DNA from: Candidatus Krumholzibacteriia bacterium
GTDB lineage: Bacteria; Krumholzibacteriota; Krumholzibacteriia; JAJRXK01
Assembly: GCA_035268685.1 (NCBI GenBank)
Contig: DATFKK010000087.1
Span: 15,717-79,716, forward strand
Length of the DNA: 64,000 bases
Direction: 5' to 3'
A program made the position numbers and the translations under genes. Below the pieces are notes generated by a model. The model saw only the letters and a program-made list of their open reading frames with translations, had not been told where the DNA came from and did no database searches. This document shows, piece after piece, positions 7,643 through 37,263 of this stretch. How positions within the stretch are numbered: the first letter of the stretch is position 1; the number at the start of each line of letters is the position of its first letter.

Positions 7643-7763
7643 GTCGCGTGTCCCTGTCGTGCCGGCTGCGGAGGGCGCAACCGGTCCTTGCCCGCCACTC
7701 GAAGAGCGTTCACGCTACCCTTTCGTTCCCGACTCGGCCACCCGGACCCGCGTGGAGATCCCC

Positions 7764-9494
7764 ATGACCGACGACCTCCGTGAACTCGAAGCCATGGCCC
7801 GCCGATGGATGGACGACGACCCCGACCCCGCCACGCGTGAAGAGACCGCCCGCATGCTCGACGCGGGCGACACCGACGCGCTGCGCGAAGCCTTCGGAGC
7901 GCGCCTGGAGTTCGGGACCGCCGGCCTGCGCGGCGTGATCGGACCCGGTCCGAACCGCATGAACCGGGCACTCGTCCGGCGTGTGACCGCCGGTCTCGCC
8001 GACCATCTTCTCGCCCGGCAATCGCGGGCCCGCGAGATGGGTGTGGTGGTGGGCGGCGACGCACGCCGGCTCTCGCCCGAACTGGCCGAGGACACCGCGC
8101 GTGTTCTCGTGGGCAAGGGAATCCGTGTGCACTTCTTCGAGGACTTCGTGCCCACGCCTGTGCTCGCCTACGCCGTCCGCCGGTTGGGAGCGGCGGCCGG
8201 TGTGATCGTGACGGCCAGCCACAATCCGCCGGAGTACAACGGCTACAAGGTCTACTGGGACAACGCGGCGCAGATCGTTCCACCCCACGACCGTGGGATC
8301 AGCGCGGCGATCGATCGCGTCGACTCGGTGGCCGACCTCGCCATGCCCACGCTCGACGGAGCCCGGGAGCAGGACCTGCTGAGGACGGTGGGCGAGTCGG
8401 TGCTGGAGGACTACTACGCGGAACTGCTCGCCCAGCGGCGGCACCCGGACGTGCCGAAGGAGATCCGGGTGGTCTACACGGCCATGCACGGCGTCGGCGG
8501 CCGCTTCGTGACCGAGGTGTTGCACCGCGCGGGCTACGCGAACGTCCATCCCGAAGCCGCGCAGTACCAGCCCGACGGGGAGTTCCCCACGGTCCGCTTC
8601 CCGAATCCCGAGGAGGACGGGGCCATGGACCTGTCCATGGCGCTCGCGCGCGAACACGGCGCCGACGTGGTGCTGGCCAACGATCCCGATGCCGATCGTC
8701 TGGCCGTGGGGGTCCCGACGGGAGGGGGGGACTACCGTCTCCTGACCGGCAACGAGATCGGATGCCTGCTCGCCTACTACCTGCTCACCGAGAATCCTCC
8801 CGCGGAGTCCGATCCGCTGGTGATGACCACCATCGTGAGCTCTCGCATGTTGCAGGCCATGGCCCACGAACTCGGAGCGCACTACGACGAGACGCTCACC
8901 GGCTTCAAGTGGATCGCCAACGTCTCGCAGCGGCATGCGCGCGAGCGGGGTTGGCACTTCGTCATGGGGTACGAAGAGGCGCTCGGCTACACGGTCGGCC
9001 CGGTCGTCCCCGACAAGGACGGGGTGGGTGCGGCCTTGATCTTCACCGAGATCGCCGCCGTTTGTCGCAGCCGCGGCCTGACCCTCGTCGAGTACCTCGA
9101 ACAGATGGTCCGGCGTTTCGGGTCGTACGTCAGCCATCAGCACAGCCTGACGTTGCCCGGGCAGGAGGGTGCAGCGAAGATCGCGGCGATCATGGACGCC
9201 TTCCGGGCCGAGGCTCCGGATCGCATCGGCGAGCACGCGGTGGTCCGGGTCGTCGACTACGCGGACGGCCACGAGGAACTGCCGCCGTCCAACGTGCTGG
9301 CCTTCGACCTCGAGGGCGGGGGGCAGGTCCTGCTGCGGCCCAGTGGTACCGAACCCAAGATCAAGTACTACTTCGAACTCTCCGAGCAACCGGACGAGGA
9401 CGAGGAGGTCGCACGGGCTCGGGAGCGTGCGACGCGCCGTCTCGACGCTCTGGTGCAGGCCTTCCTGGCGCTCGCGGAGGAGCGGGTGCGATGA
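7764..9494 (+). CDS. phosphoglucomutase/phosphomannomutase family phospho-sugar mutase
   Basis: Active-site TASHNPPEYNGYKV. Metal-binding DPDADRLAV. ATG at 7764 (MTDDLRELEA); the longer ORF-track start at 7443 has an implausible N-terminus. Confidence 0.8.
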   Translation: MTDDLRELEAMARRWMDDDPDPATREETARMLDAGDTDALREAFGARLEFGTAGLRGVIGPGPNRMNRALVRRVTAGLADHLLARQSRAREMGVVVGGDARRLSPELAEDTARVLVGKGIRVHFFEDFVPTPVLAYAVRRLGAAAGVIVTASHNPPEYNGYKVYWDNAAQIVPPHDRGISAAIDRVDSVADLAMPTLDGAREQDLLRTVGESVLEDYYAELLAQRRHPDVPKEIRVVYTAMHGVGGRFVTEVLHRAGYANVHPEAAQYQPDGEFPTVRFPNPEEDGAMDLSMALAREHGADVVLANDPDADRLAVGVPTGGGDYRLLTGNEIGCLLAYYLLTENPPAESDPLVMTTIVSSRMLQAMAHELGAHYDETLTGFKWIANVSQRHARERGWHFVMGYEEALGYTVGPVVPDKDGVGAALIFTEIAAVCRSRGLTLVEYLEQMVRRFGSYVSHQHSLTLPGQEGAAKIAAIMDAFRAEAPDRIGEHAVVRVVDYADGHEELPPSNVLAFDLEGGGQVLLRPSGTEPKIKYYFELSEQPDEDEEVARARERATRRLDALVQAFLALAEERVR

Positions 9495-10420
9495 ACGATG
9501 CATCGTCGTCCGCGGGAACCGATCCGGCCACCGCTCCGCACTTCCTCGACGCCGAGCCCTCGACCCTGGAAGAGGCCGATGCCGCGGTGCTCTCGGTTCC
9601 CTACGAGGGTACGGTCAGCTTCGGCACCGGTACGGCGCGGGGTCCGGCAGCCGTGATCGGAGCGGGTCCCCACCTCGAAACCTTCGACGAGGAACTCGAG
9701 TGGGAATCCGACGGAGCGCTGAAGGTGGTCACGCTCCGGCCGATCGAGCCCGCGAGGGGCGAGCGCCCCGAGAGTTTCATGGGCCGGCTCAAGAACGCGT
9801 GCATGGGCTTCGGACTGGGGCCTCCGTTCCCGTTGACCTTCGGGGGCGAGCACTCGATCACTCCGGCCGTGCTCGACGGGATCCGAGACGACCTCTCCGA
9901 CGTCACGGTCGTCCAGATCGACGCCCACGCCGACCTGCGCGACAGCTATCACGGAAGCCGGAACAACCACGCCTGCGCCATGCGCCGGGTGCTCGATCTG
10001 GGCGTGAGGCGATTGATCGCGGTGGGAATCCGTAGCTGCACGGCCGAGGAGTTCGCGATGGCTCGCGACGACGGTCGCATCGACACGCTCTATGCGCACC
10101 AGATGCACGACGCGTCGCGTTGGCAGCACCTGCTCGACGATCTACGGGCTCTGGACGGGCCCGTCTACCTGACCGTCGACATCGACGGGCTCGACTGCAC
10201 GCTCTGCCCGGGCACCGGCACCCCGCAGCCCGGTGGCCTGAGCTGGGAACAGGCGCTCGACGTGGTACGTGCCACCGTGCGGGAGAGCAATGCCGAGGTC
10301 TTCGGGGCCGACGTGGTCGAGGTGGCGCCCATGGGGCAGAGCCAGGTGAACGAGATGGTCGCCGCCAAGCTCGGATTCAAGATCCTGGCGTACCGTTTCG
10401 CGCCCGGCCGGGGGCGTTGA
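9491..10420 (+). CDS. speB: agmatinase (ureohydrolase family)
   Basis: Arginase/agmatinase motifs GGEHSIT, IDAHADLRD, DIDGLD, PGTGTPQPGGLS. Start overlaps the upstream stop (ATGA). The track ORF 8762..10420 is over-extended. Confidence 0.8.
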   Translation: MNDASSSAGTDPATAPHFLDAEPSTLEEADAAVLSVPYEGTVSFGTGTARGPAAVIGAGPHLETFDEELEWESDGALKVVTLRPIEPARGERPESFMGRLKNACMGFGLGPPFPLTFGGEHSITPAVLDGIRDDLSDVTVVQIDAHADLRDSYHGSRNNHACAMRRVLDLGVRRLIAVGIRSCTAEEFAMARDDGRIDTLYAHQMHDASRWQHLLDDLRALDGPVYLTVDIDGLDCTLCPGTGTPQPGGLSWEQALDVVRATVRESNAEVFGADVVEVAPMGQSQVNEMVAAKLGFKILAYRFAPGRGR

Positions 10421-10837
10421 GATCGGTCCGCGCCGCGGCGGACTGATCCGGGCGAAGTGCAGTCCCAGCGTCATCAGGGCCACGGCCGTCCAGAGCAGGA
10501 GACGCAGGACGTTGGTGGAGCGCAGCACGCCCGAGGCTGCGTAGCGAGGACGTCCCCGACTTCCGCGCTCGACGGCCTTCCAGAGTTGCAGCACGGCCAG
10601 TACCGACGCCACCGTCACCAGGACCAGGGGAGTCCGCGCGGGACTCGCCCAGGGGCTCAGGGCGAGCGCGGCCAGCGCGATGTCGGCGACGGCCAGCGTG
10701 CGATTGTGCGCGTGACTCCAGGCGGTCGTGCGGCGGCGGGCCGTGCCGAGCAACAGCGCCAGGGCCTCGCTCACGGTCAGTCCCGCGGCGAGCAGGTTCA
10801 CGGCTGGCAGGAACTGGATCACGAAGAACATGGGCAC
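10142..10837 (-). CDS. hypothetical small membrane protein (3' third overlaps agmatinase antisense)
   Basis: First ~139 aa are strongly hydrophobic with ~4 TM helices and fill the agmatinase/next-gene gap exactly. The remainder is antisense of speB. No stop until 10142. Confidence 0.3.
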   Translation of the reverse strand: MPMFFVIQFLPAVNLLAAGLTVSEALALLLGTARRRTTAWSHAHNRTLAVADIALAALALSPWASPARTPLVLVTVASVLAVLQLWKAVERGSRGRPRYAASGVLRSTNVLRLLLWTAVALMTLGLHFARISPPRRGPISTPPAGRETVRQDLESELGGDHLVHLALPHGRHLDHVGPEDLGIALPHGGTYHVERLFPAQATGLRGAGARAERAVEPVDVDGQVDGPVQSP

Positions 10838-10942
10838 CTCGGGCGCAGGCGTCGAAGGGATGCGGTGGAGGGCGGGAGCTCACGCGCGGTGCGGTCGACG
10901 TCGTGGGGCCGGCCCTGTCGATCGCGGCGATGCCCCTGGCGG

Positions 10943-11416
10943 TCAGCGCACCCAGTCCCGGACCTCGGGGTCCTCCTGTGCGACCTCGTCGTAGAGCCGT
11001 GCCGATCGGTCGAAGTAGGTGAGCTTGGCCGCGACCATGAGCGCGCCACCACCGACCGTGAGCACCGGGTCGAACAGGATCGCGCCGCTGATCATGACGA
11101 TCGTCCCGATACTGCCCGCGATCGCCAGAAGGGTGGTCAGCCACTTCTGGCCGGAGTCGACGTCCCAGCGGCCGCGGGCGGCCCGGACGCGTTCCCCGAA
11201 GGTCGCGCGCGAGACCCAGCTCGCCGTCGATGCCGGCGGCGGGATCAGACGCGGGGCCGCGATCGACCAGCCCAGGAGCACCAGCAGCGCCAGCAGGTAC
11301 CAGGGGTCGAACCACTGGCGCGACCACAGGGCCGCGGCGAAGAGTGGAAGGGCGGCCAGACGCGACCACACGGTTGCCGGATGGGCTCGGCGTTCCCAGA
11401 CCTCTTCGGTGCTCAT
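10943..11416 (-). CDS. hypothetical membrane protein
   Basis: Start MSTEEVWERR overlaps the upstream cupin stop (ATGA). Three or four predicted TM helices. Confidence 0.45.
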   Translation of the reverse strand: MSTEEVWERRAHPATVWSRLAALPLFAAALWSRQWFDPWYLLALLVLLGWSIAAPRLIPPPASTASWVSRATFGERVRAARGRWDVDSGQKWLTTLLAIAGSIGTIVMISGAILFDPVLTVGGGALMVAAKLTYFDRSARLYDEVAQEDPEVRDWVR

Positions 11417-11778
11417 GCGTCCTCCGGGTCGCGGTGCACGGTCTCGGGGGAGAAGGCCGGCAGACACACCGCGATGTACTCGGCGCCCTCCGGCGTGCTG
11501 TAGCGGATCCATTCACCCGGTGCGGTGATCACGGCCTCGCCGGCGCGGACCTCCAGGCGGCCACCCTCGTACTCGACGTGCACGGCGCCGTCGAGGACCA
11601 CGGTGATCTCCTCGAACTCGGGGCGCTGTCCCGGTTCGATCCAGCCCGCCGGTGACTTCATGCGGGCCACGCTGACGGCGTCGTGGCCGCTGTTCACGCG
11701 ACCGGCGAATTCCTCGATCCGTTTCGGCTCGGTGCCGGCGGCTTCGATCACGGTGGGTGCGTCGATCTTGCGAGGCAC
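11413..11778 (-). CDS. cupin domain protein
   Basis: ~120 aa beta-barrel-like sequence (VVLDGAVHVEYEGGRLEVRAGEAVITAPGEWIRY). Translationally coupled to the downstream membrane protein. Confidence 0.55.
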   Translation of the reverse strand: MPRKIDAPTVIEAAGTEPKRIEEFAGRVNSGHDAVSVARMKSPAGWIEPGQRPEFEEITVVLDGAVHVEYEGGRLEVRAGEAVITAPGEWIRYSTPEGAEYIAVCLPAFSPETVHRDPEDA

Positions 11779-12896: not shown

Positions 12897-13862
12897 TCAA
12901 GACTCGCTGGCCTCGGTCTCGGCCGTCAGGATGGCCACGCGGACCTCGGGGGGTGACTTCCTGCGGTCGATGCTGACCACGCGCACGGGGATCTCCTGTC
13001 CCACCTCGTAGTAGGCGCCGGCATCGGGTACGAAGCCGCGGTTCATGTCCTTCACGTGCAGCAGGGTCTTGGCGTGCTGATGCAGGTCGAGGAACACCCC
13101 GTACTTCTTGACCGTCTGCACACGGCACTCGACCACGTCGCCCACCTCGGGGAGGTCGATCGACTCGGGGTCGATGGGTTCCGGTGCCATGCCCGGTTCG
13201 TATTCGTCGTCGTACTCGTCATCGTACTCGTCGTACTCGTCGTCGTATTCGTCTTCGTACTCGTCGTCGTACTCGTCTTCATCGGCGGCTGCCCTCGAGG
13301 GGGCTTGGGCCTGGGTGCCGTTCTCGCGCCGCTCCCGCGGCTCTGGCGGACGTTTGTCGCTCTCGACTGCGTCGCGCAGGTCGTTGAGGTCGATGAAGTT
13401 CACGCCGACCTGCTGTCGCAGTTCCACCGCCACGTTCTGGGGCGTGGCGGCCACCATCACGCGCTTGCCCCGGCGTTGCAGGGTCTCGAGGAGCGGGACG
13501 AAGTCGCTGTCGCCGGTGACGAAGACCGCCGTGTCGTAGTGGTCGGCCTCGCTGAGTGCGTCGATCGCCAGTTCGATGTCCAGGCTGCCCTTCATGTGGT
13601 AGGTGCCCGACGTCCGGTCGAAGACCTGCTTCAGCACCTTCTTGCGGATGGAGAATCCGATCAGGGTCAGGTGGTGCAGGAAGCGCTCCTGCTCGGGTTC
13701 CGGAGTGCGGTTGTAGGCCTGGTACCAACGCGCCGCCACCAGCTCACGGCCTTCACGCATGGCCGCGAGGAATCGCGGCCATTCGATCCACCAGCCGAGT
13801 GCTTCCTTCTGGGCGAAATAGACGTTGGCGCCATCGACGAAGATGGCCACACGTTCGGCCAT
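12897..13862 (-). CDS. NYN-domain (LabA-like) nuclease fused to S1 RNA-binding domain, acidic (DEY)n linker
   Basis: NYN signature VAIFVDGANVY ... VFVTGDSDFVPLLETLQRRGKRV. C-terminal S1-like GDVVECRVQTVKKYGVFLDL. Linker EYDDEYEDEYDDEYDEYDDEYDDEYE is encoded by tandem nucleotide repeats. Confidence 0.65.
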   Translation of the reverse strand: MAERVAIFVDGANVYFAQKEALGWWIEWPRFLAAMREGRELVAARWYQAYNRTPEPEQERFLHHLTLIGFSIRKKVLKQVFDRTSGTYHMKGSLDIELAIDALSEADHYDTAVFVTGDSDFVPLLETLQRRGKRVMVAATPQNVAVELRQQVGVNFIDLNDLRDAVESDKRPPEPRERRENGTQAQAPSRAAADEDEYDDEYEDEYDDEYDEYDDEYDDEYEPGMAPEPIDPESIDLPEVGDVVECRVQTVKKYGVFLDLHQHAKTLLHVKDMNRGFVPDAGAYYEVGQEIPVRVVSIDRRKSPPEVRVAILTAETEASES

Positions 13863-14138: not shown

Positions 14139-15194
14139 CTAGTCGACGCGAACCAGCGTGCCACCCCGGCGCTCGACGGTGCCGATCCGTGCAGCCTGCT
14201 CGTAGCCGGCCGCGCGGAGTGCCCGCAGGGCGTCTTCGGCCCGATCCGCGGGAACGCTCGCCACGAGGGGGCCGGAGGTCTGTGGATCGTGCAGGAGTTC
14301 GGCCCGTTCCGCCGCGAGTTCGCGCGTGATCTCCATGCGCTCGACGGCGTGGCGCGTGTTGGCCTGTGCGCCGCCGCACGTGAAGCCCTCGGCCAGCATC
14401 TGCAGCGCACCCGGGAGCTCGGGAATGGCCTCGTGGTCGAGACACAGCGTCACGTCGCTGGCCTCGGCCATCTCGGCCATGTGTCCGCTCAGGCCGAATC
14501 CTGTGATGTCGGTCGCGGCGCGGGCCCCGTGGGCGCGGGCGATCTCGGCGGCCGGGCCGTTCGAGGTCGTCATGCCTCGGACGAGGTTCTCGAACCAGGG
14601 GTCGTCTTCGCCGAAACGTCCGCTCTTCAGCGCGGTCGACAGGGCCGAGGTGCCGATCGCCTTGTTGATCAACAGCACCTCGCCCGGTCGGGCATGGCGG
14701 TTGGTCAGGAGCTCGTCGGGGTGGATCTCGCCGACCACGGCCAGTCCGAACTTGAGCTCGGAGTCCTTCACCGTGTGGCCGCCGAGAACCGGGCACGACG
14801 CGGCGAGCGAGGCCTCGCTCGCACCGGCCAGCACCTCACGCAGGGCCTCGGCCGGGATCTTCGGAGAGAAACACGCCACGTTCAGGGCCATGAGCGGCCG
14901 GGCGCCCATGGCGTAGATGTCGCTGATCGAGTTGGTGGCCGCGATGCGCCCGAAGGTGAAGGGATCGTCGACGATCGGTGTGATCACGTCGACCGTGAAC
15001 ACGATCGCGCGGTCCTCGCTCACACGATAGACGGCGGCGTCGTCGGCGGGCTCGAGCCCGACGAGAATGCGGTCGTCGTCCGGGATCTTCGGCAATCCCT
15101 GCAGCACGATCTCCAGGTCCCCCGGAGCGAGCTTGGCCGCTCAACCGGCGGCGCTGGCGTACTGCGTCAGACGGATCCGTTGCTCGTCACTCAT
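14139..15194 (-). CDS. selD: selenide, water dikinase (selenophosphate synthetase), Sec-containing selenoprotein (in-frame TGA at 15143..15141)
   Basis: N-terminus MSDEQRIRLTQYASAAG-U-AAKLAPGDLEIVLQGLP aligns with E. coli SelD [23 protein letters not shown], with TGA at the Cys17 position. Downstream AIR-synthase-like domain motif DITGFGLSGH. The ORF track starts at the internal Met at 15107. Confidence 0.8.
15111..15127 (-). promoter_or_regulatory. candidate SECIS-like hairpin 14 nt downstream of selD UGA
   Basis: mRNA CUCCGG-GGGAC-CUGGAG forms a 6-bp stem with a 5-nt loop just 3' of the recoded UGA. Consistent with, but not diagnostic of, a bacterial SECIS. Confidence 0.3.
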
Positions 15195-15213
15195 GGCTCA
15201 CCCCCTTGCGTGG

Positions 15214-20445: not shown

Positions 20446-21909
20446 GTGTCCTTGGCCAACGGCCGCACCATTGCCCGCAACAGCGCCTTCCTCGGGCTCG
20501 CCTTCGCGATCTCCAAACTCTTCTCGATCGGTCTGACGGCGATCGCCGGTCGTGTGCTCGGTGCCACCGGCTTCGGTCTGTACGCAACGGGCGCGGCACT
20601 GGTCGAGGTGGGGCGGATCGTCGGCGGTGCCGGCCTGGACTATCTGGTCGCGCGCGAGGTCGCGAGTGCGCCGGAGCGGGCCGACCGCGTGGCGCGTCAC
20701 GCGGCTGCCCTGAAGCTGGCGGCCGGCGCGGTGATCTACCTCGCCCTGCTCGCCATCGTCGTGTGGATGGACTACCCGCGTCCGGTCCTCGGGGTGGTCC
20801 TGATCGTCGGGACCGCTCTGTTCCTCGAGAACCTGAGCGACACGCTCGACGCCGTGTTCCAGGGCGTCGAACGCATGCACGTGACGACGATCGCCTTCGC
20901 CACCAGCTCGGCCTTCGTGTTCGTGAGCGGTGCGGCGGCATTGCTGGGCGGGCTCGGCGTGCTCGGCTACGCCGCGTGCTTCGCCGCCGGATTCGTCGTG
21001 CGCTTCGCGGTCATGCTGCGCGCGGCCACGCGGGACGGCCTGGTGTCGTCGCGATGGCGGGGGCTCGAACGCGGCGAGTCGGTGCGTCAGCTTCGGGCGG
21101 CGGTTCCACTGCTCGGCGCCACGGTCCTGGCCGTGGTCTTCCATCGCATGGATCTGCTCATGCTCGGTCGCATGGAGGCTCCCGAGCAGGTCGGGCTGTA
21201 CGCGGCGGCGGTCCGGATCGTCGACGTCGTGGTGCTCCTGCCGCGCATCCTGGCGACGGCCGTCTATCCGACCCTGCGCAAGCAGCTCGACGTCGACGCC
21301 ACGCGGCTCGGTGCGATGGTCGCCGACGCCACCCGTGTCTCGCTGGTGTTGTGTTCGCTGGCGGGCCTCGCCGTGTGGTTCCTCGCCCCGGTGGCCCTTC
21401 GGTGGATTCCCGGACCCGAGTTCGTTCCCGCGACCGACGCCCTGCGCCTGCTCAGCTGGGGCATCGTCCTGCAGGGCGGCGCCCACATGATCGCCCGGCT
21501 GCTGCTGGCCATCGAGGCCGAGCGCGATTTCGCCCTGGTGGCCGGAGCGTCGCTGCTCGTGAACCTGGGGCTGAACCTGTGGTCGATCCCCCGCTTCGGG
21601 ATCGAGGGCGCGGCCTTCGCCACCCTCGCCGCCTACGGCGTGAACCTCGCCCTGTACTTCGTGGTGGCGGCACGGCGCGGTCGTCGGATCCCTCTGGGTC
21701 GCTCCGTGATCGGGCCGATCGGTGCGGTGGTCGCGGCCTTCGCCGTCACGGTGTGGATGAGCGACGCCGCGTCGTGGGTCCAGGTCGCCACGGTGGCCGC
21801 TGGTTGGGCGATCGTCCTGGTCGGGCTGCGTGGCGTGCGCGGAATGGACCTCGATCGGATCCGCAAGTTGATCCGGCGCGACGCCGATGGTGCTTTCCGA
21901 GAGAGTTGA
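20446..21909 (+). CDS. MOP-superfamily polysaccharide/oligosaccharide flippase (Wzx/MurJ-like)
   Basis: ~12-14 TM helices. Typical flippase layout (N-terminal KLFSIGLTAIAGRVLG, internal RMDLLMLGRM). GTG start at 20446. Confidence 0.7.
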   Translation: MSLANGRTIARNSAFLGLAFAISKLFSIGLTAIAGRVLGATGFGLYATGAALVEVGRIVGGAGLDYLVAREVASAPERADRVARHAAALKLAAGAVIYLALLAIVVWMDYPRPVLGVVLIVGTALFLENLSDTLDAVFQGVERMHVTTIAFATSSAFVFVSGAAALLGGLGVLGYAACFAAGFVVRFAVMLRAATRDGLVSSRWRGLERGESVRQLRAAVPLLGATVLAVVFHRMDLLMLGRMEAPEQVGLYAAAVRIVDVVVLLPRILATAVYPTLRKQLDVDATRLGAMVADATRVSLVLCSLAGLAVWFLAPVALRWIPGPEFVPATDALRLLSWGIVLQGGAHMIARLLLAIEAERDFALVAGASLLVNLGLNLWSIPRFGIEGAAFATLAAYGVNLALYFVVAARRGRRIPLGRSVIGPIGAVVAAFAVTVWMSDAASWVQVATVAAGWAIVLVGLRGVRGMDLDRIRKLIRRDADGAFRES

Positions 21910-21937: not shown

Positions 21938-22711
21938 TCAGCGGCGGTCGCCCGAATCGAACTGCCCCGGCAACTGACGCCACCGGGAACGCAGTCGTTC
22001 TCGGGCCACGGCACCGGGGAACAGCCAGCGCAGAGCCACGTAGCCTCCGACGAGCCCGCCGATGTGCGCCCAGTAGGCCACGCCCCCCGACTGTCCGGGC
22101 ACCAACAGGCCGAACACACCACCGAGCACCTGTAGAGCCGTCCACACCGAGATCAACAACAGGGCCGGTACCTGCAGGAACTGCACGAAGAACCCCAGGA
22201 ACAACAGCGAAGTGATCCGGGCCTTCGGGTAGAGCACGACGTAGGCACCCAGCATGCCGCTGACGGCACCGCTGGCTCCGATCACCGGCACGATCGAATC
22301 GGGATCGGTGGCCACGTGGGCGGCGAGGCCGACCAGGCCGGTGACGAGATAGAACCCCAGGAAGCGCACCGGGCCGAGGAAGTCCTCGACGTTGTTCCCG
22401 AAGATCCACAGGAAGTGCATGTTGAACAGCAGGTGCATCCAGCCACCGTGCAGGAACATCGACGTGACCGCGGTCAACGGCAGGAACGACGGTCCTTCCA
22501 CGTGCACCAGGGGCATGCCCTGCACGCGTCCGACGAGATCCACGAGGCTGGTGAGTTCGTAGGGCGTCGCTCCCCAGCGCGCGATGAAGAAGCCCATTTC
22601 GGCGCCGGCGGCGAGTTCGCGCACGAACACCAGCAGGTTCAGCGCGATCAGACCCAGCGTGATCACGGGGAACCGCTCGGTCGGGTTGTGGTCGCGCAGC
22701 GGAACGATCAT
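21938..22711 (-). CDS. rhomboid family intramembrane serine protease
   Basis: Catalytic GASGAVSG and downstream AHIGGLVGG (Ser-His dyad). Six TM helices. Confidence 0.8.
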   Translation of the reverse strand: MIVPLRDHNPTERFPVITLGLIALNLLVFVRELAAGAEMGFFIARWGATPYELTSLVDLVGRVQGMPLVHVEGPSFLPLTAVTSMFLHGGWMHLLFNMHFLWIFGNNVEDFLGPVRFLGFYLVTGLVGLAAHVATDPDSIVPVIGASGAVSGMLGAYVVLYPKARITSLLFLGFFVQFLQVPALLLISVWTALQVLGGVFGLLVPGQSGGVAYWAHIGGLVGGYVALRWLFPGAVARERLRSRWRQLPGQFDSGDRR

Positions 22712-22714
22712 GGA

Positions 22715-23329
22715 TCAGTCGAACCAGTTCGACACGCGATCCCAGAACGAGACCGATCGCTCCACGCGCAACGGCAGGGCATCGGCATTGCGCTTGGGCC
22801 AGACGTCGCCCTCGTTGCACAGCTGCACGCCGAGACCGTAGCGCTCGTGGGGCAGCGGCTCGACCGTGCCCTCGCGGAAGCGCGGATCGACGGCCACCTC
22901 GAAGTGCCCGAGGATCAGCGGCGCGTCCGGCGGCTGCCGATCGCAGCCCAGGAACAGGATCTCGGCGCCCTCGCCGAAGATGATCTCCTTCTCCTGCAGG
23001 CCCTCGAGTGGTTTCCACACCACCGGTCCGGCCGGCTCGAGGAAGTCGGCCATCTCGATGCGCAGCACCATGCCGCTGAACTCGATCGCCGGATCCCCGC
23101 GGATCCCGAGGTAGCAGGTGAAGGTGTCGTCGTCATCGTCCAGACGGATCGCGCGCGAGCTCCCCTCGGGATCGGCGTAGAGGCCGATCGTGTAGTCGCC
23201 GACGTCGGGGTCGGGATCGGAACCGAGGTTCTGTGCCGCCGCCCGGACCGGACCGAGTGCGGACACGAGGACCAGGAACACGAAGAAGAAGGACGCCACC
23301 GGGCGCTCGCGGTCGATTGCTTTGCTCAT
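22715..23329 (-). CDS. secreted hypothetical protein
   Basis: Signal peptide MSKAIDRERPVASFFFVFLVLVSALGPVRAAAQ. Lies between DUF2064 (stop overlaps its start) and rhomboid. Confidence 0.45.
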   Translation of the reverse strand: MSKAIDRERPVASFFFVFLVLVSALGPVRAAAQNLGSDPDPDVGDYTIGLYADPEGSSRAIRLDDDDDTFTCYLGIRGDPAIEFSGMVLRIEMADFLEPAGPVVWKPLEGLQEKEIIFGEGAEILFLGCDRQPPDAPLILGHFEVAVDPRFREGTVEPLPHERYGLGVQLCNEGDVWPKRNADALPLRVERSVSFWDRVSNWFD

Positions 23330-24069
23330 GACTCGGGCAGGTCGATGCCGGGACGGGGGTCGAGTTCGGGCCGGTCGCAACGGACGAGCCAATCCCGGGT
23401 GATCTTCGCGCGCCCTGGGTGCTCGCGCAAGCGGGTGACGAGCGAACGCAGGTCGTCGGGCGTGTCGACGTCGAACCAGCCGCGCGTCTCGGACCGCTCC
23501 AGGCCCAGGGCGTCGGCACGATTCCGCAGGGCTTCTCCCGTCCTCGGACTGCTCCACGGCAACGCGTCGAACAGCCCCGGCACGCGCCGACCCACGCCGA
23601 TGCACCACACGCCCCCGTCGGCCGCGGAACCCAGGACCAGGTCGGCGCCGTGGGCGAGGGCATCCAGGGCGGAGCCGAGGTGCCCGGCCGGGAGGTCCGG
23701 ACTGTCGGTCCCCACGATCAGCAGCGGCAGTTCCCCGCGCCCGTCGGCCTCGTCGACGGCTGCGCTCAACCGGTCGCCCAGGTCGCCCGCGGACTGCGGG
23801 CTGCGGTCGAGACGACCGGATCGCTGGGCCTGGCGCAGGGTCACGCGGAAGGGGGCCGATGCGTAGGTCTCGGGTCCCGACCCGTCGAGCCAAAGCCGGC
23901 AGTGGCGGGCAGCCGACCCGAGTGCGAGGTTCACGGTGTCCTCGACGAAGGCCTCGTACAGGGACGCGGCCCCGTCGGGGCCGAGCAAAGGGATCAGACG
24001 CGTCTTGGCGGTGCCGGGGCGCGGCGCCTTCGCGAAGATCCCGAGACAGGCATCGATGGGTGAGGTCAT
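23326..24069 (-). CDS. DUF2064 family protein (TIGR04282-like putative nucleotidyl/glycosyl transferase)
   Basis: MTSPIDACLGIFAKAPRPGTAKTRL ... LLIVGTDSPDLPAGHL ... ADGGVWCIGVGRRVPGLFDALPWSS ... DVDTPDDL. The 645-aa track ORF is over-extended upstream. Confidence 0.7.
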   Translation of the reverse strand: MTSPIDACLGIFAKAPRPGTAKTRLIPLLGPDGAASLYEAFVEDTVNLALGSAARHCRLWLDGSGPETYASAPFRVTLRQAQRSGRLDRSPQSAGDLGDRLSAAVDEADGRGELPLLIVGTDSPDLPAGHLGSALDALAHGADLVLGSAADGGVWCIGVGRRVPGLFDALPWSSPRTGEALRNRADALGLERSETRGWFDVDTPDDLRSLVTRLREHPGRAKITRDWLVRCDRPELDPRPGIDLPES

Positions 24070-24520
24070 GCGCGAAACCGGGGAAGAGGGCACGGAACGT
24101 CGCGCCCTCCCATGGTACCGCAAGCGGGTCGACTCGCTGCTGAGAATCGCAGACGAGGCACGGGAACGCATGCACGCGGTCGCGCGGGTCCGCCGCCTGC
24201 CGCGCCGGGCCCAGGTCCTGAACGCCTTCGACGGCGCCGCCACCGTGTTCTGGATCGAGGACGGCCGGGTGCGGCTCTCGCGCTTCGAGGCCGACGGCTC
24301 GGAGACCGCGGTGGCCATCCTGGAGCGCGGCGAGGTCTTCGGGATCGACACCTCGGTGGGACCCGGTGAGGTGCGAGCGGCCACGGCCGAGGCCCTCGAG
24401 ACGAGCACCGTCCTGGCCTTCGAGCCCTCCGACCTCCGTGCCCTGCAACGCGACGAACACCTTCGCGACGTGGTGTCGGCCCTGGCGCCTCCCTCGACGT
24501 CCACGGGAGCCGCAGCGTGA
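24068..24520 (+). CDS. cyclic-nucleotide-binding (Crp effector-like) domain protein, no HTH
   Basis: AFDGAATVFWIEDGRVRLSRFEADGSETAVAILERGEVFGIDTS matches a cNMP-binding beta-roll. Start ambiguous: ATG 24068 overlaps the divergent DUF2064 start; alternative ATG 24170. Confidence 0.45.
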   Translation: MRETGEEGTERRALPWYRKRVDSLLRIADEARERMHAVARVRRLPRRAQVLNAFDGAATVFWIEDGRVRLSRFEADGSETAVAILERGEVFGIDTSVGPGEVRAATAEALETSTVLAFEPSDLRALQRDEHLRDVVSALAPPSTSTGAAA

Positions 24521-25254
24521 GTCGGATCTTCGTGGTGATCCCCGCTCTCGACGAGGAGGCTTCGATCGGTCACGTGCTCGAGCCCGTCGCCGACCGCCCG
24601 CGGGTCGAGGTCGTGGTGTGCGACAACGGGTCGACCGATGCCACGGCCGACGTCGCCCGCGCGCACGGAGCCACGGTCGTCCGCGACGAGCGACGGGGCT
24701 ACGGCCAGGCCTGTCTGACGGCGCTGGCCGAGGTCCGCTCCCGCGGGCCCGCCGCCGACGACGTGGTCTGCTTCCTCGACGCCGACTTCAGCGACGATCC
24801 CACCCAGCTGCCCGAGATCGTCGGACCCGTCGAACGCGGCGAGGCCGACATGGTGATCGGTTCCCGTGTGCTCGGCCGTCGTGAGGCGGGTGCCCTGCTG
24901 CCCCAGGCCCGCTGGGGGAACTGGTTGGCCACCCGGGCCATCGCGTGGATCACCGGTGTCCGCTTCACCGATCTCGGCCCGTTCCGCGCCATCCGCTGGT
25001 CGACGCTCGAGGCCGCCGCGATGGAGGACCGGGCCTATGGCTGGACGGTCGAGATGCAGCTCAAGGTGGCGGCCGCAGGCGCGCGCTGTATCGAGGTTCC
25101 GGCCCACTACCGCAAGCGCATCGGCCGCAGCAAGGTCACGGGGACCATCCGCGGAACGGTCCTGGCCAGCGTGACCATTCTGTCGATCCTCGGCCGGTGG
25201 GCGTGGCACCATACGCGGGGCCGCGGTCGTCTGGTCACCGACACACCGTCCTGA
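24517..25254 (+). CDS. glycosyltransferase family 2 (DPM1/GtrB-like)
   Basis: IFVVIPALDEEASIGHVL...VVVCDNGSTDAT...FLDADFSDDP...RRGYGQA...GFRAI-type motifs. C-terminal TM helix. GTGA overlap with the upstream stop. Confidence 0.75.
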   Translation: MSRIFVVIPALDEEASIGHVLEPVADRPRVEVVVCDNGSTDATADVARAHGATVVRDERRGYGQACLTALAEVRSRGPAADDVVCFLDADFSDDPTQLPEIVGPVERGEADMVIGSRVLGRREAGALLPQARWGNWLATRAIAWITGVRFTDLGPFRAIRWSTLEAAAMEDRAYGWTVEMQLKVAAAGARCIEVPAHYRKRIGRSKVTGTIRGTVLASVTILSILGRWAWHHTRGRGRLVTDTPS

Positions 25255-26622: not shown

Positions 26623-27582
26623 TCACGGAGACGAGATCGTCATCGACGCGGGTGCGCCCTGCACGCTGCGTTCGGCCAGGGTCTCCACGGCCTTCATCGC
26701 CCCCGCGGCGACGGCGGCGAGGAAATCCATGGCCACGTCGAAGTCGTCCTCGAGCACGTCGAAGAGCGCTTCGTGATTCCCGCGCAACGTCGTGACGTCG
26801 GTCCGGGCCACGGGGGTGTACCAGCGCTCTCCCCGGGCCAGGGTCTCGAGGTTCCCCAGCGGGTAGCCGCGTCCTGCTTCGAAGGTGCCGCCGTCGGGAA
26901 GACGGCACTCGACCTCGCCCTCGAGGATCACGAGCAGATGATCGGCCGTCTCGCCGGGCCGCCACAACTCGGTTCCACCGGTCCAGCGTTCCTGCCGCAT
27001 GGACGTCGCCATCAGCATGAGCGCCTCGAGCCCCAGGTTGCGGAAGATGTTCCCGCGTCTCAACAGCACGAGGCGTTCGACCGCGTCGAGCGATCGCTTC
27101 GGCAGGCTGACGGCCTCGCCGGTCCACGGCACACGGCTCGATCCCGCCACGATCCGCGGCATGATCTGCAGATGGTACGACGCCACGTTGCGCAGCAGGT
27201 TCTGCAGCAGACGGAAGTTCTCCTCGAGCGCGGCCACGATGGCATCGAGTTCGAACACGAGCGCGACGCCCTCCGTCGCCGCCCGCGCCTCGAAGTTCGG
27301 TTCCACCCGCGAGAGCGCGGGGATGATTCCCACGTTCTCACCGCTGCCGCACGAGACGATCTCCCGGCCGTGGCTGAACACGGCGACCTGGCCGCTCACG
27401 ATCACGAAGAAGCGATCGACGGGTTCGCCCTCGCGCAGTACCAGGTCACCTCGACGCAACACGACCTCTTCGGCCTGGCGCGAGAGCGCGGTCAGGTCGC
27501 GGGTCGCGATGCCCTGCAACTGCGGAAGCGTACGCAGGTAGAGCAGGCGATCGATCGGTCCGACGAAGCGTGGATCACTCAT
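26623..27582 (-). CDS. tandem cyclic-nucleotide-binding domain protein
   Basis: Two cNMP-binding beta-roll units (RGDLVLREGEPVDRFFVIVSGQVAV... and HLLVILEGEVECRL...). Start MSDPRFVGPID at 27582 overlaps the end of the upstream gene. Confidence 0.65.
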   Translation of the reverse strand: MSDPRFVGPIDRLLYLRTLPQLQGIATRDLTALSRQAEEVVLRRGDLVLREGEPVDRFFVIVSGQVAVFSHGREIVSCGSGENVGIIPALSRVEPNFEARAATEGVALVFELDAIVAALEENFRLLQNLLRNVASYHLQIMPRIVAGSSRVPWTGEAVSLPKRSLDAVERLVLLRRGNIFRNLGLEALMLMATSMRQERWTGGTELWRPGETADHLLVILEGEVECRLPDGGTFEAGRGYPLGNLETLARGERWYTPVARTDVTTLRGNHEALFDVLEDDFDVAMDFLAAVAAGAMKAVETLAERSVQGAPASMTISSP

Positions 27583-30352
27583 GTCCGAGCAACTCCGTCT
27601 CGGGTTGATCGAGCAGTACCAGCGCGCGGGCCACGACCTGCTGTTGCACCAGGGGCGGCTCGTCGCGCAGGGCCAGGAGGGCGTCGCGGAACGACGTGAG
27701 CCCCAGTTCACCGATGTGGTGGATCGTGATGCACCGCATGCCCAGGCTTCCCTGTTCCAGGAACGACGCGAGCGTTTCCTCGTAGGTCCACGGACGCGGC
27801 GTGTAGAAGGCCAGACCGCGGCGGAGCCGCTCGTCGTCGGGAAGGTCGTCGACGAAGCCGAGCAGTCCGTCGCGGAGCGGAGCCTCGAGTGTGGCCGCGA
27901 TCAACTCGTGCGCACTGGCGTGGTCCTCGGCCCGGTCACTCTCCAGGCCGTTGTAGATTCGTAGCCAGTCCTCTTCGGGCAACAGCAGATCGAGCAGACG
28001 GAACATCCGTTCGCGGGCGTGCGCCTCCTTGTGCTCGAGCGTGTGCAGCAGCAGTTCGTGGACCGCCGTCGCCCGCCGGGGGGCGGTGCGGGCTCCCTCG
28101 CGCAGGGCGGCACGCCAGTCGAGCAATCGGAACGCGCCCGACAGTGTCAGCTCGAGCGCCTTGCGCAGCGTGTGTCCGTCGAGTCGCAGATCGCGGTCGA
28201 GTCGGCGCAGCGACCCCAGTCCCCGCAGGATCTTGAACCGCACCAGGCCGTCGCGGACGGTCAGCAGATGGCGCATGAGCACCGACGCGGCGGACTCCGG
28301 ATCGAAGCGGGAGATGGTGCGAGGTACGTGGCGGCGGACGTTCTGGGCCCTGGTCTCGTCACCCAGGGCACGGTCGAGGGCTTCGAGGGCCGGATCGCCG
28401 ATCGAGACGAGGGCGGCGCGGGCTTCGCTCCGGACGTCGCGTACCGGGAGCATGGCGATCAGAGGTTCGATGAACTCCTCGCTCCCGACCGCGCGCATGG
28501 CGATCGCCGTCTCGCGGCGGACCTCGCGGTCCTGCTTCTGTGCGAACTCGATCAGCAACGAGGTGTGGATGGGATCGGGCTGGTCCTGGATCGAGAGCAC
28601 GAGTGCCCGCGCTTCGACGTCGTCGGCGTCCTTGGCGATGTTCCGCAGGACGGTAGCCGCGTCGTCGCCCTTGATCCAGCCCGCGGCCACCAGGGTGACC
28701 AGGGCCGTGGCCCGCACGACGGGCGAGGGATCGTCGAGGTAGGCGGAGAGTTGGCGATTCACGTCGGGGGCGAGGATCGCACGTGCTCGCAGGACACCGC
28801 CACGAATGGCTGCGTCCTCGTGGTCGGCGATACGCTCGAGGATCGGGAGGGCCTCCTGGCGTCGCGTACGCGCGAAGAGGTGCAGGGCGCGGGTGACCAC
28901 CGTCTTCGACGGGTGGTACAGGATCAACGCGGGGATGAGGTGCACGCGGTCCTGTTCGGCCAGCATGTCCATCGCCGCGACGACCTCCGAGTCGTTCACG
29001 CTGTTCAGACGTTCGATCAGTTTCTCGAGCGAGGCCAGGTCGAGCTCGGGGAATTCGACCTCCGACAACACGTCGCGTTCGCTGAGGGTCGTACGGAACA
29101 GGTCGAGGTAGTGCCGGCGGATGTCGCGGGCGAGGCGGATCCACGACACGCTCAGCGCGATCACGCCGGCGGCGAGGACCATCTCCGAGCCCGGGAGCGC
29201 GACGGCCACCAGGATCACCAGCGAGGCGACCGCCTGTCCCCCCCGCTGGCCGAGCACGTCGACGAAGGTCTTCACCTGCTCGCGGACGGTGCGCGAGAGC
29301 GGCACGTAGAGCGTCTCGATCGAGGTGCGGTGCAGCGAATGGCGCAGCGACCCGTCGACCACCTTCAGCACCAACGCCGGCACCAGCAGGATCAACGGCG
29401 AGATCGTGTAGACGATCATCAACAGGCCCGCCCCGACCACCAGCAGCGCCGGGGTCAGACCCAGCACCCGGTTCAACCCGAAGCTCCGGAGCAGGACGCT
29501 CACCAGCGTCAACTGGAACAGCAGCGACAGCAGGTTGAGCCCCAGGTAGGTGGTCGCGAAGAAGCTCGCCAGATCGGAGCCTTCGAGCTGACTGGCCACG
29601 ATGCTCTTGAACAGGTAGTCGGCGAAGGTCAGCGCGATCGTCGACACCACGACGAGCCCCAGCAGTCTCTTCACGTAGGGGCGGTGCAGGATCGTGCGCG
29701 TGGCCTGTTTCCAGTGCAGCGCATGCGAGGGGTGGCGGTGTTCGGCGTCGCGTCCGCGGGCCTCCTCCGCGGTGCGCAGGAGGGCCATGGGCAGCAGGCC
29801 GGTCAGGCCGAGGATCCCCGACGCGACCAGCAGGAAGTGGCGCGGCTCGACGATCTCGCTCAGACCGCGCGCCAGGCCCGACCCCACGATCGCTCCCAAC
29901 ACGCTCCCCGCGCCGATGATCGCGAACACGCGCTTGGCCTGGGTGACGGTGAAGACGTCCTCGACCACCAGCCAGAAACGCGTCACGACCATGGTCGCGA
30001 AGACACCCGCCCACACGTACAGCACGTACAGGACCCACGGTGGGGGCGCGGCTCCGAGCAGGGCCCACAGTCCGGCCGTCACCACCGCCGAGCCCAGGAC
30101 CAGGACCGCCAGCACCAGACGGTTGCTGCGCGCGATCGGATACCGGGCCTGCCATTGCATGAGCCCGATCGAGGCCAGCGCGATCAGCAGGTAGACCCAG
30201 GGGAGCTGCGACGCGGGGAGTCGACCGAGGAACAGCGCGTCGCGCGCGGTCTCGAGCAACGCGTGACCGGCCAGGATGCCGAAGAGCGTGATCGTCGCCC
30301 CGAACACGAGACGGCGTTCCGCGGGACGGACCGTCGCCTTCAGTTGGATCAT
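27575..30352 (-). CDS. polytopic transporter (TLC/MFS-like, ~12 TM) fused to C-terminal HEAT-repeat domain
   Basis: N-terminal 440 aa are hydrophobic with ~12 TM helices. C-terminal ~480 aa show periodic Ala/Leu/Arg-rich HEAT/PBS-like helices (ALVLSIQDQPDP..., AIAMRAVGSEEFIEPL...). Confidence 0.6.
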   Translation of the reverse strand: MIQLKATVRPAERRLVFGATITLFGILAGHALLETARDALFLGRLPASQLPWVYLLIALASIGLMQWQARYPIARSNRLVLAVLVLGSAVVTAGLWALLGAAPPPWVLYVLYVWAGVFATMVVTRFWLVVEDVFTVTQAKRVFAIIGAGSVLGAIVGSGLARGLSEIVEPRHFLLVASGILGLTGLLPMALLRTAEEARGRDAEHRHPSHALHWKQATRTILHRPYVKRLLGLVVVSTIALTFADYLFKSIVASQLEGSDLASFFATTYLGLNLLSLLFQLTLVSVLLRSFGLNRVLGLTPALLVVGAGLLMIVYTISPLILLVPALVLKVVDGSLRHSLHRTSIETLYVPLSRTVREQVKTFVDVLGQRGGQAVASLVILVAVALPGSEMVLAAGVIALSVSWIRLARDIRRHYLDLFRTTLSERDVLSEVEFPELDLASLEKLIERLNSVNDSEVVAAMDMLAEQDRVHLIPALILYHPSKTVVTRALHLFARTRRQEALPILERIADHEDAAIRGGVLRARAILAPDVNRQLSAYLDDPSPVVRATALVTLVAAGWIKGDDAATVLRNIAKDADDVEARALVLSIQDQPDPIHTSLLIEFAQKQDREVRRETAIAMRAVGSEEFIEPLIAMLPVRDVRSEARAALVSIGDPALEALDRALGDETRAQNVRRHVPRTISRFDPESAASVLMRHLLTVRDGLVRFKILRGLGSLRRLDRDLRLDGHTLRKALELTLSGAFRLLDWRAALREGARTAPRRATAVHELLLHTLEHKEAHARERMFRLLDLLLPEEDWLRIYNGLESDRAEDHASAHELIAATLEAPLRDGLLGFVDDLPDDERLRRGLAFYTPRPWTYEETLASFLEQGSLGMRCITIHHIGELGLTSFRDALLALRDEPPLVQQQVVARALVLLDQPETELLGHE

Positions 30353-36258: not shown

Positions 36259-36363
36259 GCGTCCCAGGGTAGCACGAAGTCTCCCGAGCGCCGCTTGCGT
36301 GGCCGGCCTCGGGTGGGCATCCTCTCGACTCGTCCGCCACGACCCCACTCCCGAGGTACGTCC

Positions 36364-37263
36364 GTGATCGATCCCACCGCGCTCGCCCCCGATGGCTGGA
36401 CCCTGGGCGGCGACTTCGCCGATCGCCTCCACGCCGCCACGTCGCATCTGCACGAGAGGGGAATCACGGGAGGCCGTGTCGGGCTCGTCCTCGGCAGCGG
36501 TCTCGGCGGTCTGATCGACCGCACCGAGGCGGTGGCGTCGGTCCCCTTCGCGGGCATCCCGGGATTCCACACGGCCTCGGTGGCGGGCCACTCGGGCCGT
36601 GTGGTCCAGGCCCGGCGCGGCGGGGCGGAGTTCGTCGTGCTACAGGGTCGACTGCACGCCTACGAAGGACTGGACCTGAGCAGCGTGATCCTGCCGGTGG
36701 TCGTGCTGCGGGCGCTGGGCTGCGCCACGATCGTCCTCACCAACGCCGCCGGCGGTCTGCAACCCGACATGCGTGCGGGTGACGTGGCCGTGCTCACCGG
36801 CCTGATCGACCTGCACCTGCGGGACCCGCTGCGTGGAATCCTCGTCCCCGACGGTGCCGTTCCCTCGGGACTGGCCGCCCGCGGGGCGACCCCCGGCCCG
36901 GTCTTCGACCCCGGTCTGGCCGCACAGTTGCGCGCGGTGGCCGCCGAAGAGCGCATCGCGCCGCACACGGGAACCTACGTGTCGCTGTGGGGTCCGAACT
37001 ACGAGAGTCCCGTCGAGATCGGTCTGTTGCGCCGTCTGGGTGGCGTGGCGGTCGGGATGTCCACCGGGCCCGAAGCGGTGGCGGTGCGGGCACTGGGCGC
37101 GCGGGTGGCGGGGGTGTCGCTGATCACCAACGTCGCGGTCGAGGCCGGCGGTGGTGTGGTCACGCACGACGAGGTCGTCGAGGTGGGAGCCGCCCGGCGC
37201 GACGCCATGGAGGCCCTGTTGCTGTCGACGGTCGACCGGCTCGCGGTCGTGGAGGACGCATGA
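36364..37263 (+). CDS. purine nucleoside phosphorylase (PNP-I family)
   Basis: VGLVLGSGLGGL, VGMSTGPEAVAV, LITNVAVEAGGG motifs. GTG start 36364. The track ORF is over-extended upstream. Confidence 0.8.
   Translation: MIDPTALAPDGWTLGGDFADRLHAATSHLHERGITGGRVGLVLGSGLGGLIDRTEAVASVPFAGIPGFHTASVAGHSGRVVQARRGGAEFVVLQGRLHAYEGLDLSSVILPVVVLRALGCATIVLTNAAGGLQPDMRAGDVAVLTGLIDLHLRDPLRGILVPDGAVPSGLAARGATPGPVFDPGLAAQLRAVAAEERIAPHTGTYVSLWGPNYESPVEIGLLRRLGGVAVGMSTGPEAVAVRALGARVAGVSLITNVAVEAGGGVVTHDEVVEVGAARRDAMEALLLSTVDRLAVVEDA

Follow-up and report, generated by a model that had tools for sequence, protein, structure and literature searches.

A DUF2064 protein paired with a DPM1-like GT2 glycosyltransferase in Krumholzibacteria: a candidate module for envelope glycoconjugate synthesis

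Organization of the locus

We analyzed a 64-kb stretch of DNA from a Candidatus Krumholzibacteriia bacterium (64,000 nucleotides of contig DATFKK010000087.1, assembly GCA_035268685.1), referred to below as the window, and focused on a gene for a DUF2064 protein and the GT2 glycosyltransferase gene that accompanies it. The DUF2064 gene (23326..24069, minus strand; 247 amino acids [aa]) and the GT2 gene (24517..25254, plus strand; 245 aa) are divergently arranged, with a gene for a small cyclic nucleoside monophosphate (cNMP)-binding protein of about 150 aa between them (24068 or 24056..24520, plus strand). This arrangement had been described in a first-pass annotation of the sequence, and both its coordinates and the families of the products (PF09837, PF00535, and PF00027, respectively) were confirmed by matches far beyond chance. 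On the DUF2064 side, and on the same strand, lie a gene for a 204-aa secreted cohesin-like protein that we call g18 (22715..23329) and a gene for a rhomboid-family intramembrane protease (21938..22711; PF01694, 113.7 bits); a gene for a Wzx/MOP-type polysaccharide flippase (20446..21909, plus strand; PF01943, 75.2 bits) converges on this group. The comparisons described below indicate that the DUF2064 protein and the GT2 form a conserved pair, that this GT2 is not of the kind found in arsenosugar clusters and, more tentatively, that the genes together constitute a module for envelope glycoconjugate synthesis.

Genes of the window, which has a G+C content of 70%, were called from codon-position G+C, in agreement with public gene calls; calls on four other contigs with the same sequence have identical gene ends, and the same genes were found on contigs from ENA, JGI 3300007633, and GCA_964585125.1. 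Upstream of the module, in window order, are selD (14139..15197, minus strand; TIGR00476), which we treat as context rather than as part of the module, and genes for an Omp85/POTRA protein, a Band_7 protein, a hypothetical protein, an HSP20 protein, and a second Omp85 protein, followed by the flippase, the rhomboid, g18, DUF2064, cNMP-binding, and GT2 genes. The GT2 gene is followed by genes for a GyrI-like protein, a protein with two cNMP domains, an MFS/TLC-HEAT transporter, and an amine oxidase. Searches for tRNA genes and Rfam families in the window returned none.

Two sets of loci served for comparison. The first comprises nine independent related loci: six metagenomic ones (L005 to L010) and three taken from genomes in GTDB, in part named Krumholzibacteriota (L014, L016, and L017). 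L015 duplicates the contig of L007. The second comprises 72 GTDB loci recovered by the sequence patterns DGGVWCIG and G[ST]DSPDLP[AH]. The canonical arsenosugar cluster was represented by a reference locus from Zhongshania (L012), which encodes ArsS (a radical S-adenosylmethionine [SAM] protein with a PF12345 domain; TIGR04167), a VTT/pyr-redox protein, LpxR, DUF547, GT2, DUF2064, and metallo-beta-lactamase (MBL) proteins, and an ArsM-like methyltransferase.

The DUF2064 protein has a predicted nucleotidylyltransferase-like fold

The DUF2064 protein matched PF09837 (84.4 bits, E = 7e-24). The first-pass annotation had also likened it to TIGR04282, and the hidden Markov model (HMM) comparison bears this out by a small margin (144.1 bits, E = 4e-42; curated cutoff 134); its orthologues in the clade score 130.7 to 165.3 bits, one sister orthologue thus falling below the cutoff (130.7), versus 150 to 207 bits for other members. 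The current NCBIfam name of both TIGR04282 and TIGR04283 is “arsenosugar biosynthesis glycosyltransferase,” and a public protein identical to the DUF2064 product is named [quoted passage not shown] (a third-party annotation [TPA] entry from a metagenome-assembled genome [MAG]). The older name “rSAM/selenodomain-associated transferase 1,” which had been given in the first pass, is indeed the one used by JGI for homologues. The second HMM match, to CofC (TIGR03552), is weak, at 29.6 bits against a cutoff of 105, and no F420 genes were found in the window.

By sequence, the only relative in the PDB was 3CGX (E = 7e-19). An AlphaFold2 model of the protein was obtained with a predicted local distance difference test (pLDDT) score of 95.4 and a predicted template modeling (pTM) score of 0.91. 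Foldseek searches with this model returned 3CGX first, followed by 7P97, 6BWG/6BWH, and 2I5E, which are 3-phosphoglycerate, phosphoenolpyruvate, and 2-phospholactate guanylyltransferases, and then by KdsB, IspD, and the UDP-glucose and GDP-mannose pyrophosphorylases. The named enzymes among the matches were nucleotidylyltransferases throughout, and no Leloir glycosyltransferase appeared in the top 50. The modeled fold therefore resembles that of a CofC/FbiD-like nucleotidylyltransferase and not that of a glycosyltransferase. CofC/FbiD enzymes (7P97, 6BWG, and 2I5E) are the closest characterized fold neighbors (Foldseek E = 2e-10 to 4e-8; target-normalized TM-score [TMt] 0.73 to 0.75), and the model would imply the same chemistry for the DUF2064 protein, that is, the condensation of a nucleoside triphosphate (NTP) with a phospho-compound to yield a nucleoside monophosphate-linked product and pyrophosphate. 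The likeness has limits: the CofC model is matched far below its cutoff, the F420 genes CofD/FbiA and CofE are missing near the DUF2064 gene, and the enzyme downstream is a GT2 rather than a CofD-type transferase.

The protein retains the invariant residues of its family (G19, K22-x-R24, Q92, and the motifs GDLGxR, GTDSPDLP, DGG, and WxDxD). The three residues after DGG, however, are V154-W155-C156 in the window protein and in all members of its clade, in place of the otherwise near-universal YYL, which is conserved at 97% to 100% in 32 ArsS-type loci and at 79% to 95% in other loci. This motif survey was partly selected by its own recovery patterns, and the unselected matches of the homology search show the same split between VWC and YYL. 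The clade is also set apart by overall similarity, homologues within it being 46% to 80% identical before identity drops to about 43% or less, and by a further substitution (V177/T181 to T/L). Both sets of substitutions are consistent with an altered substrate pocket. One apparent DUF2064 fusion protein among the homologues (P0026, 429 aa) was rejected, because its gene call over-extends across the opposite-strand Crp gene.

The GT2 protein is DPM1-like and not a member of TIGR04283

The GT2 protein matched PF00535 (81.1 bits, E = 1e-22). In the first-pass annotation it had been equated provisionally with TIGR04283, with a score below that model's cutoff named as one of two outcomes that together would speak against the proposal. 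Its score on this model is 38.4 bits (cutoff 182), over its N-terminal 86 residues only, and the protein is thus not a member; seven orthologues scored 27 to 46 bits or were under the listing threshold, whereas the positive control, an authentic TIGR04283 gene in L086 with an overlapping TIGR04282 neighbor, reached 266.5 bits. With the canonical partner in Zhongshania, the protein shares 27% identity, again only over the N-terminal 146 residues.

The best NCBIfam matches were all to polyprenyl-phosphate sugar synthases, namely AglJ (TIGR04182; 106.9 bits, cutoff 325), a Dol-P-hexose transferase (72.3 bits, cutoff 375), PpgS (45.4 bits, cutoff 370), and ArnC (22.5 bits, cutoff 529). A profile of nine GT2 orthologues searched against the PDB gave the dolichyl-phosphate mannose synthase DPMS (5MLZ) as the top match (E = 2e-14, positions 3 to 210), and ArnC aligned over positions 2 to 207. 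The match to GpgS extends over the N-terminal 108 positions only; a GpgS-like reading, which would point to compatible solutes, was rejected because GpgS covers just the N-terminal nucleotide-binding half, whereas the alignments with DPMS and ArnC span the catalytic domain in full. When the C-terminal half was searched alone with phmmer, no PDB relative was found. The DxD motif (D88-A-D90) is invariant among the orthologues, and a C-terminal hydrophobic helix is conserved at residues about 213 to 229. The protein shares the GT2 fold and a DxD motif with polyprenyl-phosphate glycosyltransferases (DPM1/DPMS 5MLZ; ArnC 9HWJ, 9BHC, and 8VXH; AglJ, PpgS, and GtrB). The window protein differs from these enzymes in being shorter, in scoring far below their equivalog cutoffs (for example, 106.9 versus 325 bits), and in having this one C-terminal hydrophobic helix versus two to four membrane helices. 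Judged from these alignments, the label “DPM1-like” given in the first-pass annotation is fair, and the protein is an orthologue of no named enzyme; its conserved C-terminal hydrophobic stretch is a putative membrane anchor, and polyprenyl phosphate is its putative acceptor.

Genes coupled to the pair

The start of g18 lies within the stop codon of the DUF2064 gene (ATGA), an overlap that indicates translational coupling, and g18 follows DUF2064 in every Krumholzibacteria locus examined. Its product has a signal peptide and two invariant cysteines, matches no Pfam or NCBIfam family, and has relatives in only 48 clusters of about 200 aa among 5.8 billion proteins. The AlphaFold2 model (pLDDT 82.9) had cohesin modules as its top Foldseek matches (E = 2.5e-5), suggesting a cohesin-like beta-sandwich. 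Like cohesin modules (PDB 2VO8 and 5M2S), g18 would be an extracytoplasmic nine-stranded beta-sandwich (TMt 0.65). It differs from them in its identity of about 10%, in being a stand-alone protein of 200 aa whose named relatives are from Krumholzibacteria, and in the absence of an identified dockerin partner. The rhomboid gene starts 3 bp downstream of g18 and probably shares its transcript; it occupies the same position in L007 to L010 and is absent from L005 and L006. The flippase, which gave weak Wzx_EPS and WzxE matches besides PF01943, is encoded in all Krumholzibacteria loci examined.

On the other side of the DUF2064 gene, the cNMP-binding protein matched PF00027 (47.6 bits, E = 2e-12) as its sole domain: its reading frame ends at the start of the GT2 gene and has no helix-turn-helix (HTH) region, so that the protein falls outside the two-domain definition of Crp/Fnr regulators. 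The orthologues in L007 (7217-7924), L008 (7259-7957), and L010 (7265-7960), in contrast, are full Crp/Fnr regulators of about 232 aa with an HTH_Crp_2 domain (CRP model, 110 bits), and the HTH is absent from a subclade consisting of the window, L014, L005, and L006 (about 150 aa). The cNMP gene runs with its stop codon into the start of the GT2 gene (GTGA), and such translational coupling of a GT2 to a stand-alone cNMP sensor is unusual. By N-terminal alignment, the cNMP gene starts at 24068 or 24056, and its start overlaps that of the divergent DUF2064 gene (CATG, 24056-24070). This leaves no intergenic promoter region, and each promoter must therefore lie within the opposite gene. A search upstream of DUF2064 in the nine orthologous loci revealed neither a conserved Crp box nor a conserved palindrome common to them.

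Further cNMP-related genes occur nearby. The protein with two cNMP domains (26623-27582, minus strand) is encoded by a gene that overlaps that of a 925-aa MFS/TLC-like transporter with C-terminal HEAT repeats (27575-30352, minus strand), and this pair of genes adjoins the module in the Krumholzibacteria loci too. Together with the small cNMP protein, the cyclic-nucleotide-related genes number three within 6 kb.

Conservation of the DUF2064-GT2 pair

The core of the locus, consisting of the flippase, in some loci the rhomboid, g18, and DUF2064, followed by the divergent Crp/cNMP and GT2 genes, is present in all nine related loci. Such conservation could reflect inherited gene order only, with the DUF2064 protein and the GT2 acting in unrelated processes and each tied to its own neighbors. 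About 20 kb are syntenic across the clade, including the plainly unrelated HSP20, Omp85, and selD genes, and the two genes of the pair lie on opposite strands in separate transcription units, both of which would fit such an explanation. The pair nevertheless stays together where transposase fragments (L007) or gene insertions have broken the block, and it recurs in other settings. On a 1.29-Mb contig (L011), a GT2 gene runs into the start of a co-directional DUF2064 gene; the GT2 encoded there shares 54% full-length identity with that of the window, and the DUF2064 protein falls outside the Krumholzibacteria clade and keeps the motif DGGYY. A GT2 that is 40% identical is encoded 1 kb from a DUF2064 gene in a Dehalococcoidia MAG (L071). 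In the canonical branch, moreover, pairing is the rule, the TIGR04282 and TIGR04283 genes being adjacent or fused. We regard these arrangements as evidence that the pairing of DUF2064 with the DPM1-like GT2 is functional and not just inherited, and consider gene order alone an unlikely explanation.

Among the 72 GTDB loci, 28 carried arsenosugar markers (15 with ArsS and 25 with a TIGR04283-type GT2), consistent with the first-pass statement that TIGR04282 proteins travel with a radical-SAM protein carrying PF12345, as they do in the Zhongshania reference locus. A DPM1-like GT2 was found in 5 of the 72 (four of the Krumholzibacteria type and one from Dehalococcoidia). The other 39 had no marker, their TIGR04282 proteins still scoring 150 to 207 bits, and the genes lay in unrelated contexts (for example, QueC-FolE2 in Geobacter relatives, TolQ, and UGDH).

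The QueC-FolE2 context recurs in four Geobacter/Desulfuromonadales relatives (L020, positions 7725-10585, as well as L024, L033, and L041), in which TIGR04282 genes scoring about 200 bits directly follow those for QueC and the GTP cyclohydrolase FolE2; no GT2 or ArsS gene lies within 10 kb of them. In L011, genes at 10294-11600, 1.6 kb downstream of the GT2-DUF2064 operon, encode a protein that binds cNMP and a class II cyclic-nucleotide phosphodiesterase/MBL protein (PF02112, Apyc1-like). This is a second, independent association with cNMP genes, which may or may not be meaningful.

Arsenosugar partners are missing near the pair

The first-pass annotation had proposed that the pair might be accompanied by a radical-SAM/selenodomain protein, either intact or split by an in-frame UGA codon, and we searched for this protein and for the other products of the arsenosugar cluster. 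In tblastn searches of the window with ArsS, ArsM, TIGR04283-type GT2, VTT/pyr-redox, DUF547, LpxR, MBL, and DUF2064 queries, only the DUF2064 query matched, all others giving nothing at E < 1. A six-frame scan of the window for CxxxCxxC produced matches in non-coding frames only, and Pfam scans of most of its larger genes revealed neither a radical-SAM nor an ars gene. Likewise, no ArsS, ArsM, VTT, or TIGR04283-type gene was found within 8 to 10 kb in the nine related Krumholzibacteria loci. The expected partner, which accompanies TIGR04282 in canonical loci, was thus found neither in the window, be it intact or split by UGA, nor near the related pairs.

The window pair resembles the TIGR04282/TIGR04283 pair of ArsS clusters in combining a DUF2064 protein (PF09837) with a GT2 of about 230 to 250 aa, and in a DUF2064 protein that passes the TIGR04282 cutoff and shares the invariant residues. 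It differs in its GT2, which is of another subfamily (38 bits on TIGR04283), in the lack of ArsS, ArsM, VTT, and DUF547 genes nearby, in the replacement of YYL by VWC, and in its extra partners, namely g18, Crp/cNMP, and the flippase.

An alternative explanation is that the genome encodes a dispersed arsenosugar pathway dependent on ArsS and ArsM, in which ArsS (possibly as a selenoprotein), ArsM, and a true TIGR04283 protein are encoded elsewhere and the DPM1-like GT2 is unrelated or performs an extra step. Such a pathway would explain a TIGR04282 score above the cutoff (144.1 versus 134), and high-scoring TIGR04282 genes (150 to 207 bits) are often found without ArsS or TIGR04283 within 10 kb; the genome also uses selenocysteine (Sec), and TIGR04167 is among the families known to be selenoproteins (PMC13188914). 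The score is marginal, however, and that of the sister orthologue lies below the cutoff; the YYL motif, invariant in ArsS-linked members, is VWC here; a different GT2 partner has been kept in nine Krumholzibacteria loci and in two others; and no gene of the ars cluster is found in the window or in the related loci. On balance, a dispersed arsenosugar pathway seems improbable to us.

Relationship to the selenoprotein gene selD

The first-pass annotation had placed the pair near a Sec-containing selD in a selenium-using genome, which our analysis corroborates. In selD, the catalytic position is encoded by an in-frame TGA (15141-15139; ...SAAG[U]AAKLAPG...), and the gene product, with the Sec residue replaced by cysteine, scored 331 bits on TIGR00476 (cutoff 125). 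The Sec codon is kept in the orthologues of L005, L006, and L009. The stability of the hairpin that follows the UGA codon, where a Sec insertion sequence (SECIS) would be expected, was not significant (z = -1.5). A tRNA-Sec gene was not found in the window, and selA and selB were not seen among the genes scanned.

The gene lies 8.1 kb from DUF2064, and this proximity raises the idea that the pair takes selenophosphate from SelD to form a selenosugar or selenolipid. The spacing is kept in several relatives, and the association noted in the first pass is one of conserved synteny; as a functional link it fares poorly. Eight to nine unrelated genes intervene (in the window, those for Omp85, Band_7, hypothetical, HSP20, Omp85, flippase, rhomboid, and g18 proteins), and ABC-transporter genes take the place of selD in L008 and L010, where the module persists. 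L011 and L071, furthermore, carry the pair without selD nearby, and no SenB-, SelU-, or YbbB-like gene was seen. We therefore regard a selenium-linked function as very improbable.

A putative module for envelope glycoconjugate synthesis

What the analysis shows comprises family and fold assignments, couplings between the genes, a pairing that is conserved and recurs, and a lack of arsenosugar partners nearby. Our preferred interpretation, to which we assign a probability of roughly 0.45, is that the locus encodes a lineage-specific Krumholzibacteria variant of the widespread pairing of DUF2064 with a small GT2, a module that most likely serves envelope glycoconjugate synthesis and not arsenic or selenium chemistry. 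We infer its substrates, the sequence of its steps, and the involvement of the flippase, g18, and the rhomboid as follows. The CofC/FbiD-like DUF2064 protein would condense an NTP with a phosphorylated small molecule or a sugar-1-phosphate, yielding an unusual nucleotide-activated donor. The GT2, a DPM1/ArnC-like enzyme that its C-terminal helix would keep at the membrane, would then move the activated group onto polyprenyl phosphate. The lipid-linked product would be flipped, the neighboring Wzx-like flippase being the candidate for this step, and used outside the cytoplasm, where the co-translated, secreted g18 and perhaps the rhomboid may act. Expression or activity of the module may be tied to a cyclic-nucleotide sensor, which would be a full Crp protein in relatives and the sensor domain alone in this species.

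Several points weigh against this interpretation. The DUF2064 protein is, after all, above the TIGR04282 cutoff, and stand-alone TIGR04282 genes are common (39 of the 72 GTDB loci), so that the absence of ars genes nearby does not prove the absence of ArsS from the genome. The GT2 is far under every equivalog cutoff, with the consequence that its family matches fix neither donor nor acceptor, and it has a single hydrophobic helix at its C terminus, where DPMS, GtrB, and ArnC have several helices. Much of the synteny, as of the flippase, rhomboid, and Omp85 genes, could be a phylum-level gene order without functional meaning, and the independence of L011 from the Krumholzibacteria clade is read from a neighbor-joining tree and the DGGYY motif alone. 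A literature search returned no paper that mentions DUF2064 and only passing mentions of TIGR04282, and to our knowledge the substrate, product, or activity is known for no DUF2064 protein. A search for papers that treat Krumholzibacteria and arsenic together returned nothing informative.

The protein itself has already been annotated publicly; it is the swapped GT2 partner and the accessory genes that make the locus a clade-specific variant of the DUF2064-GT2 pair. The public name “arsenosugar biosynthesis glycosyltransferase” is probably misleading here, given the CofC-like fold, the arsenosugar partners missing nearby, and a GT2 partner of another kind, so that automated annotation would wrongly attribute arsenic (formerly selenium) metabolism to Krumholzibacteria. 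The existence of two kinds of pair, one with a TIGR04283-type and the other with a DPM1-like GT2, provides a handle on the role of DUF2064, which is most likely to supply the GT2 with a nucleotide-activated donor. In practice the locus is of modest importance; it would represent an uncharacterized envelope-modification module of an uncultured phylum.

A broader and more speculative possibility, which we consider doubtful, concerns the DUF2064 family as a whole. Its members would be nucleotidylyltransferases and not glycosyltransferases, activating unusual 5-substituted ribosyl or phospho compounds, perhaps derived from SAM, for transfer by a partner GT2, and Krumholzibacteria and at least two other lineages would have swapped this GT2 for a DPM1-like enzyme, giving rise to an undescribed polyprenyl-phosphate-linked envelope modification that involves a clade-specific secreted cohesin-like protein and is tied to cyclic-nucleotide sensing.

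A gene overlap in Latescibacterota touches on the substrates of the family. In L029, and identically in L030, a TIGR04282 gene (10001-10600; 180.8 bits) is overlapped at its start by a gene for a SAM hydroxide adenosyltransferase (9075-10001; PF01887, 185 bits; PF20257, 77 bits). Enzymes of the SAM hydroxide adenosyltransferase family, like ArsS, act at C5' of SAM. The arrangement suggests that DUF2064 proteins may process SAM-derived 5'-substituted adenosine or ribose compounds. The association of TIGR04282 genes with both ArsS and the Latescibacterota adenosyltransferase is likewise a hint of 5'-deoxyadenosine-type precursors for TIGR04282 proteins.

Other features of the window

Several genes farther from the module are of note in their own right. 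A purine nucleoside/methylthioadenosine (MTA) phosphorylase-family gene (36322-37263, plus strand; PF01048, 133 bits), which overlaps a long spurious open reading frame, is found 12 kb away from the module and keeps its syntenic position in L009 and L010. The gene at 39280-40362 (minus strand) encodes a 360-aa protein with a match to baeRF_family10 (63.9 bits), a bacterial archaeo-eukaryotic release factor-like family, which is notable in a Sec-decoding genome. An 81-aa protein encoded at 44583-44828 (plus strand) consists almost entirely of Asp/Glu/Tyr/Phe repeats (DDDDYEDDFEDD...), and the linker DEYDDEYEDEY of an NYN+S1 RNA-binding protein (12897-13850, minus strand) resembles this repeat protein.

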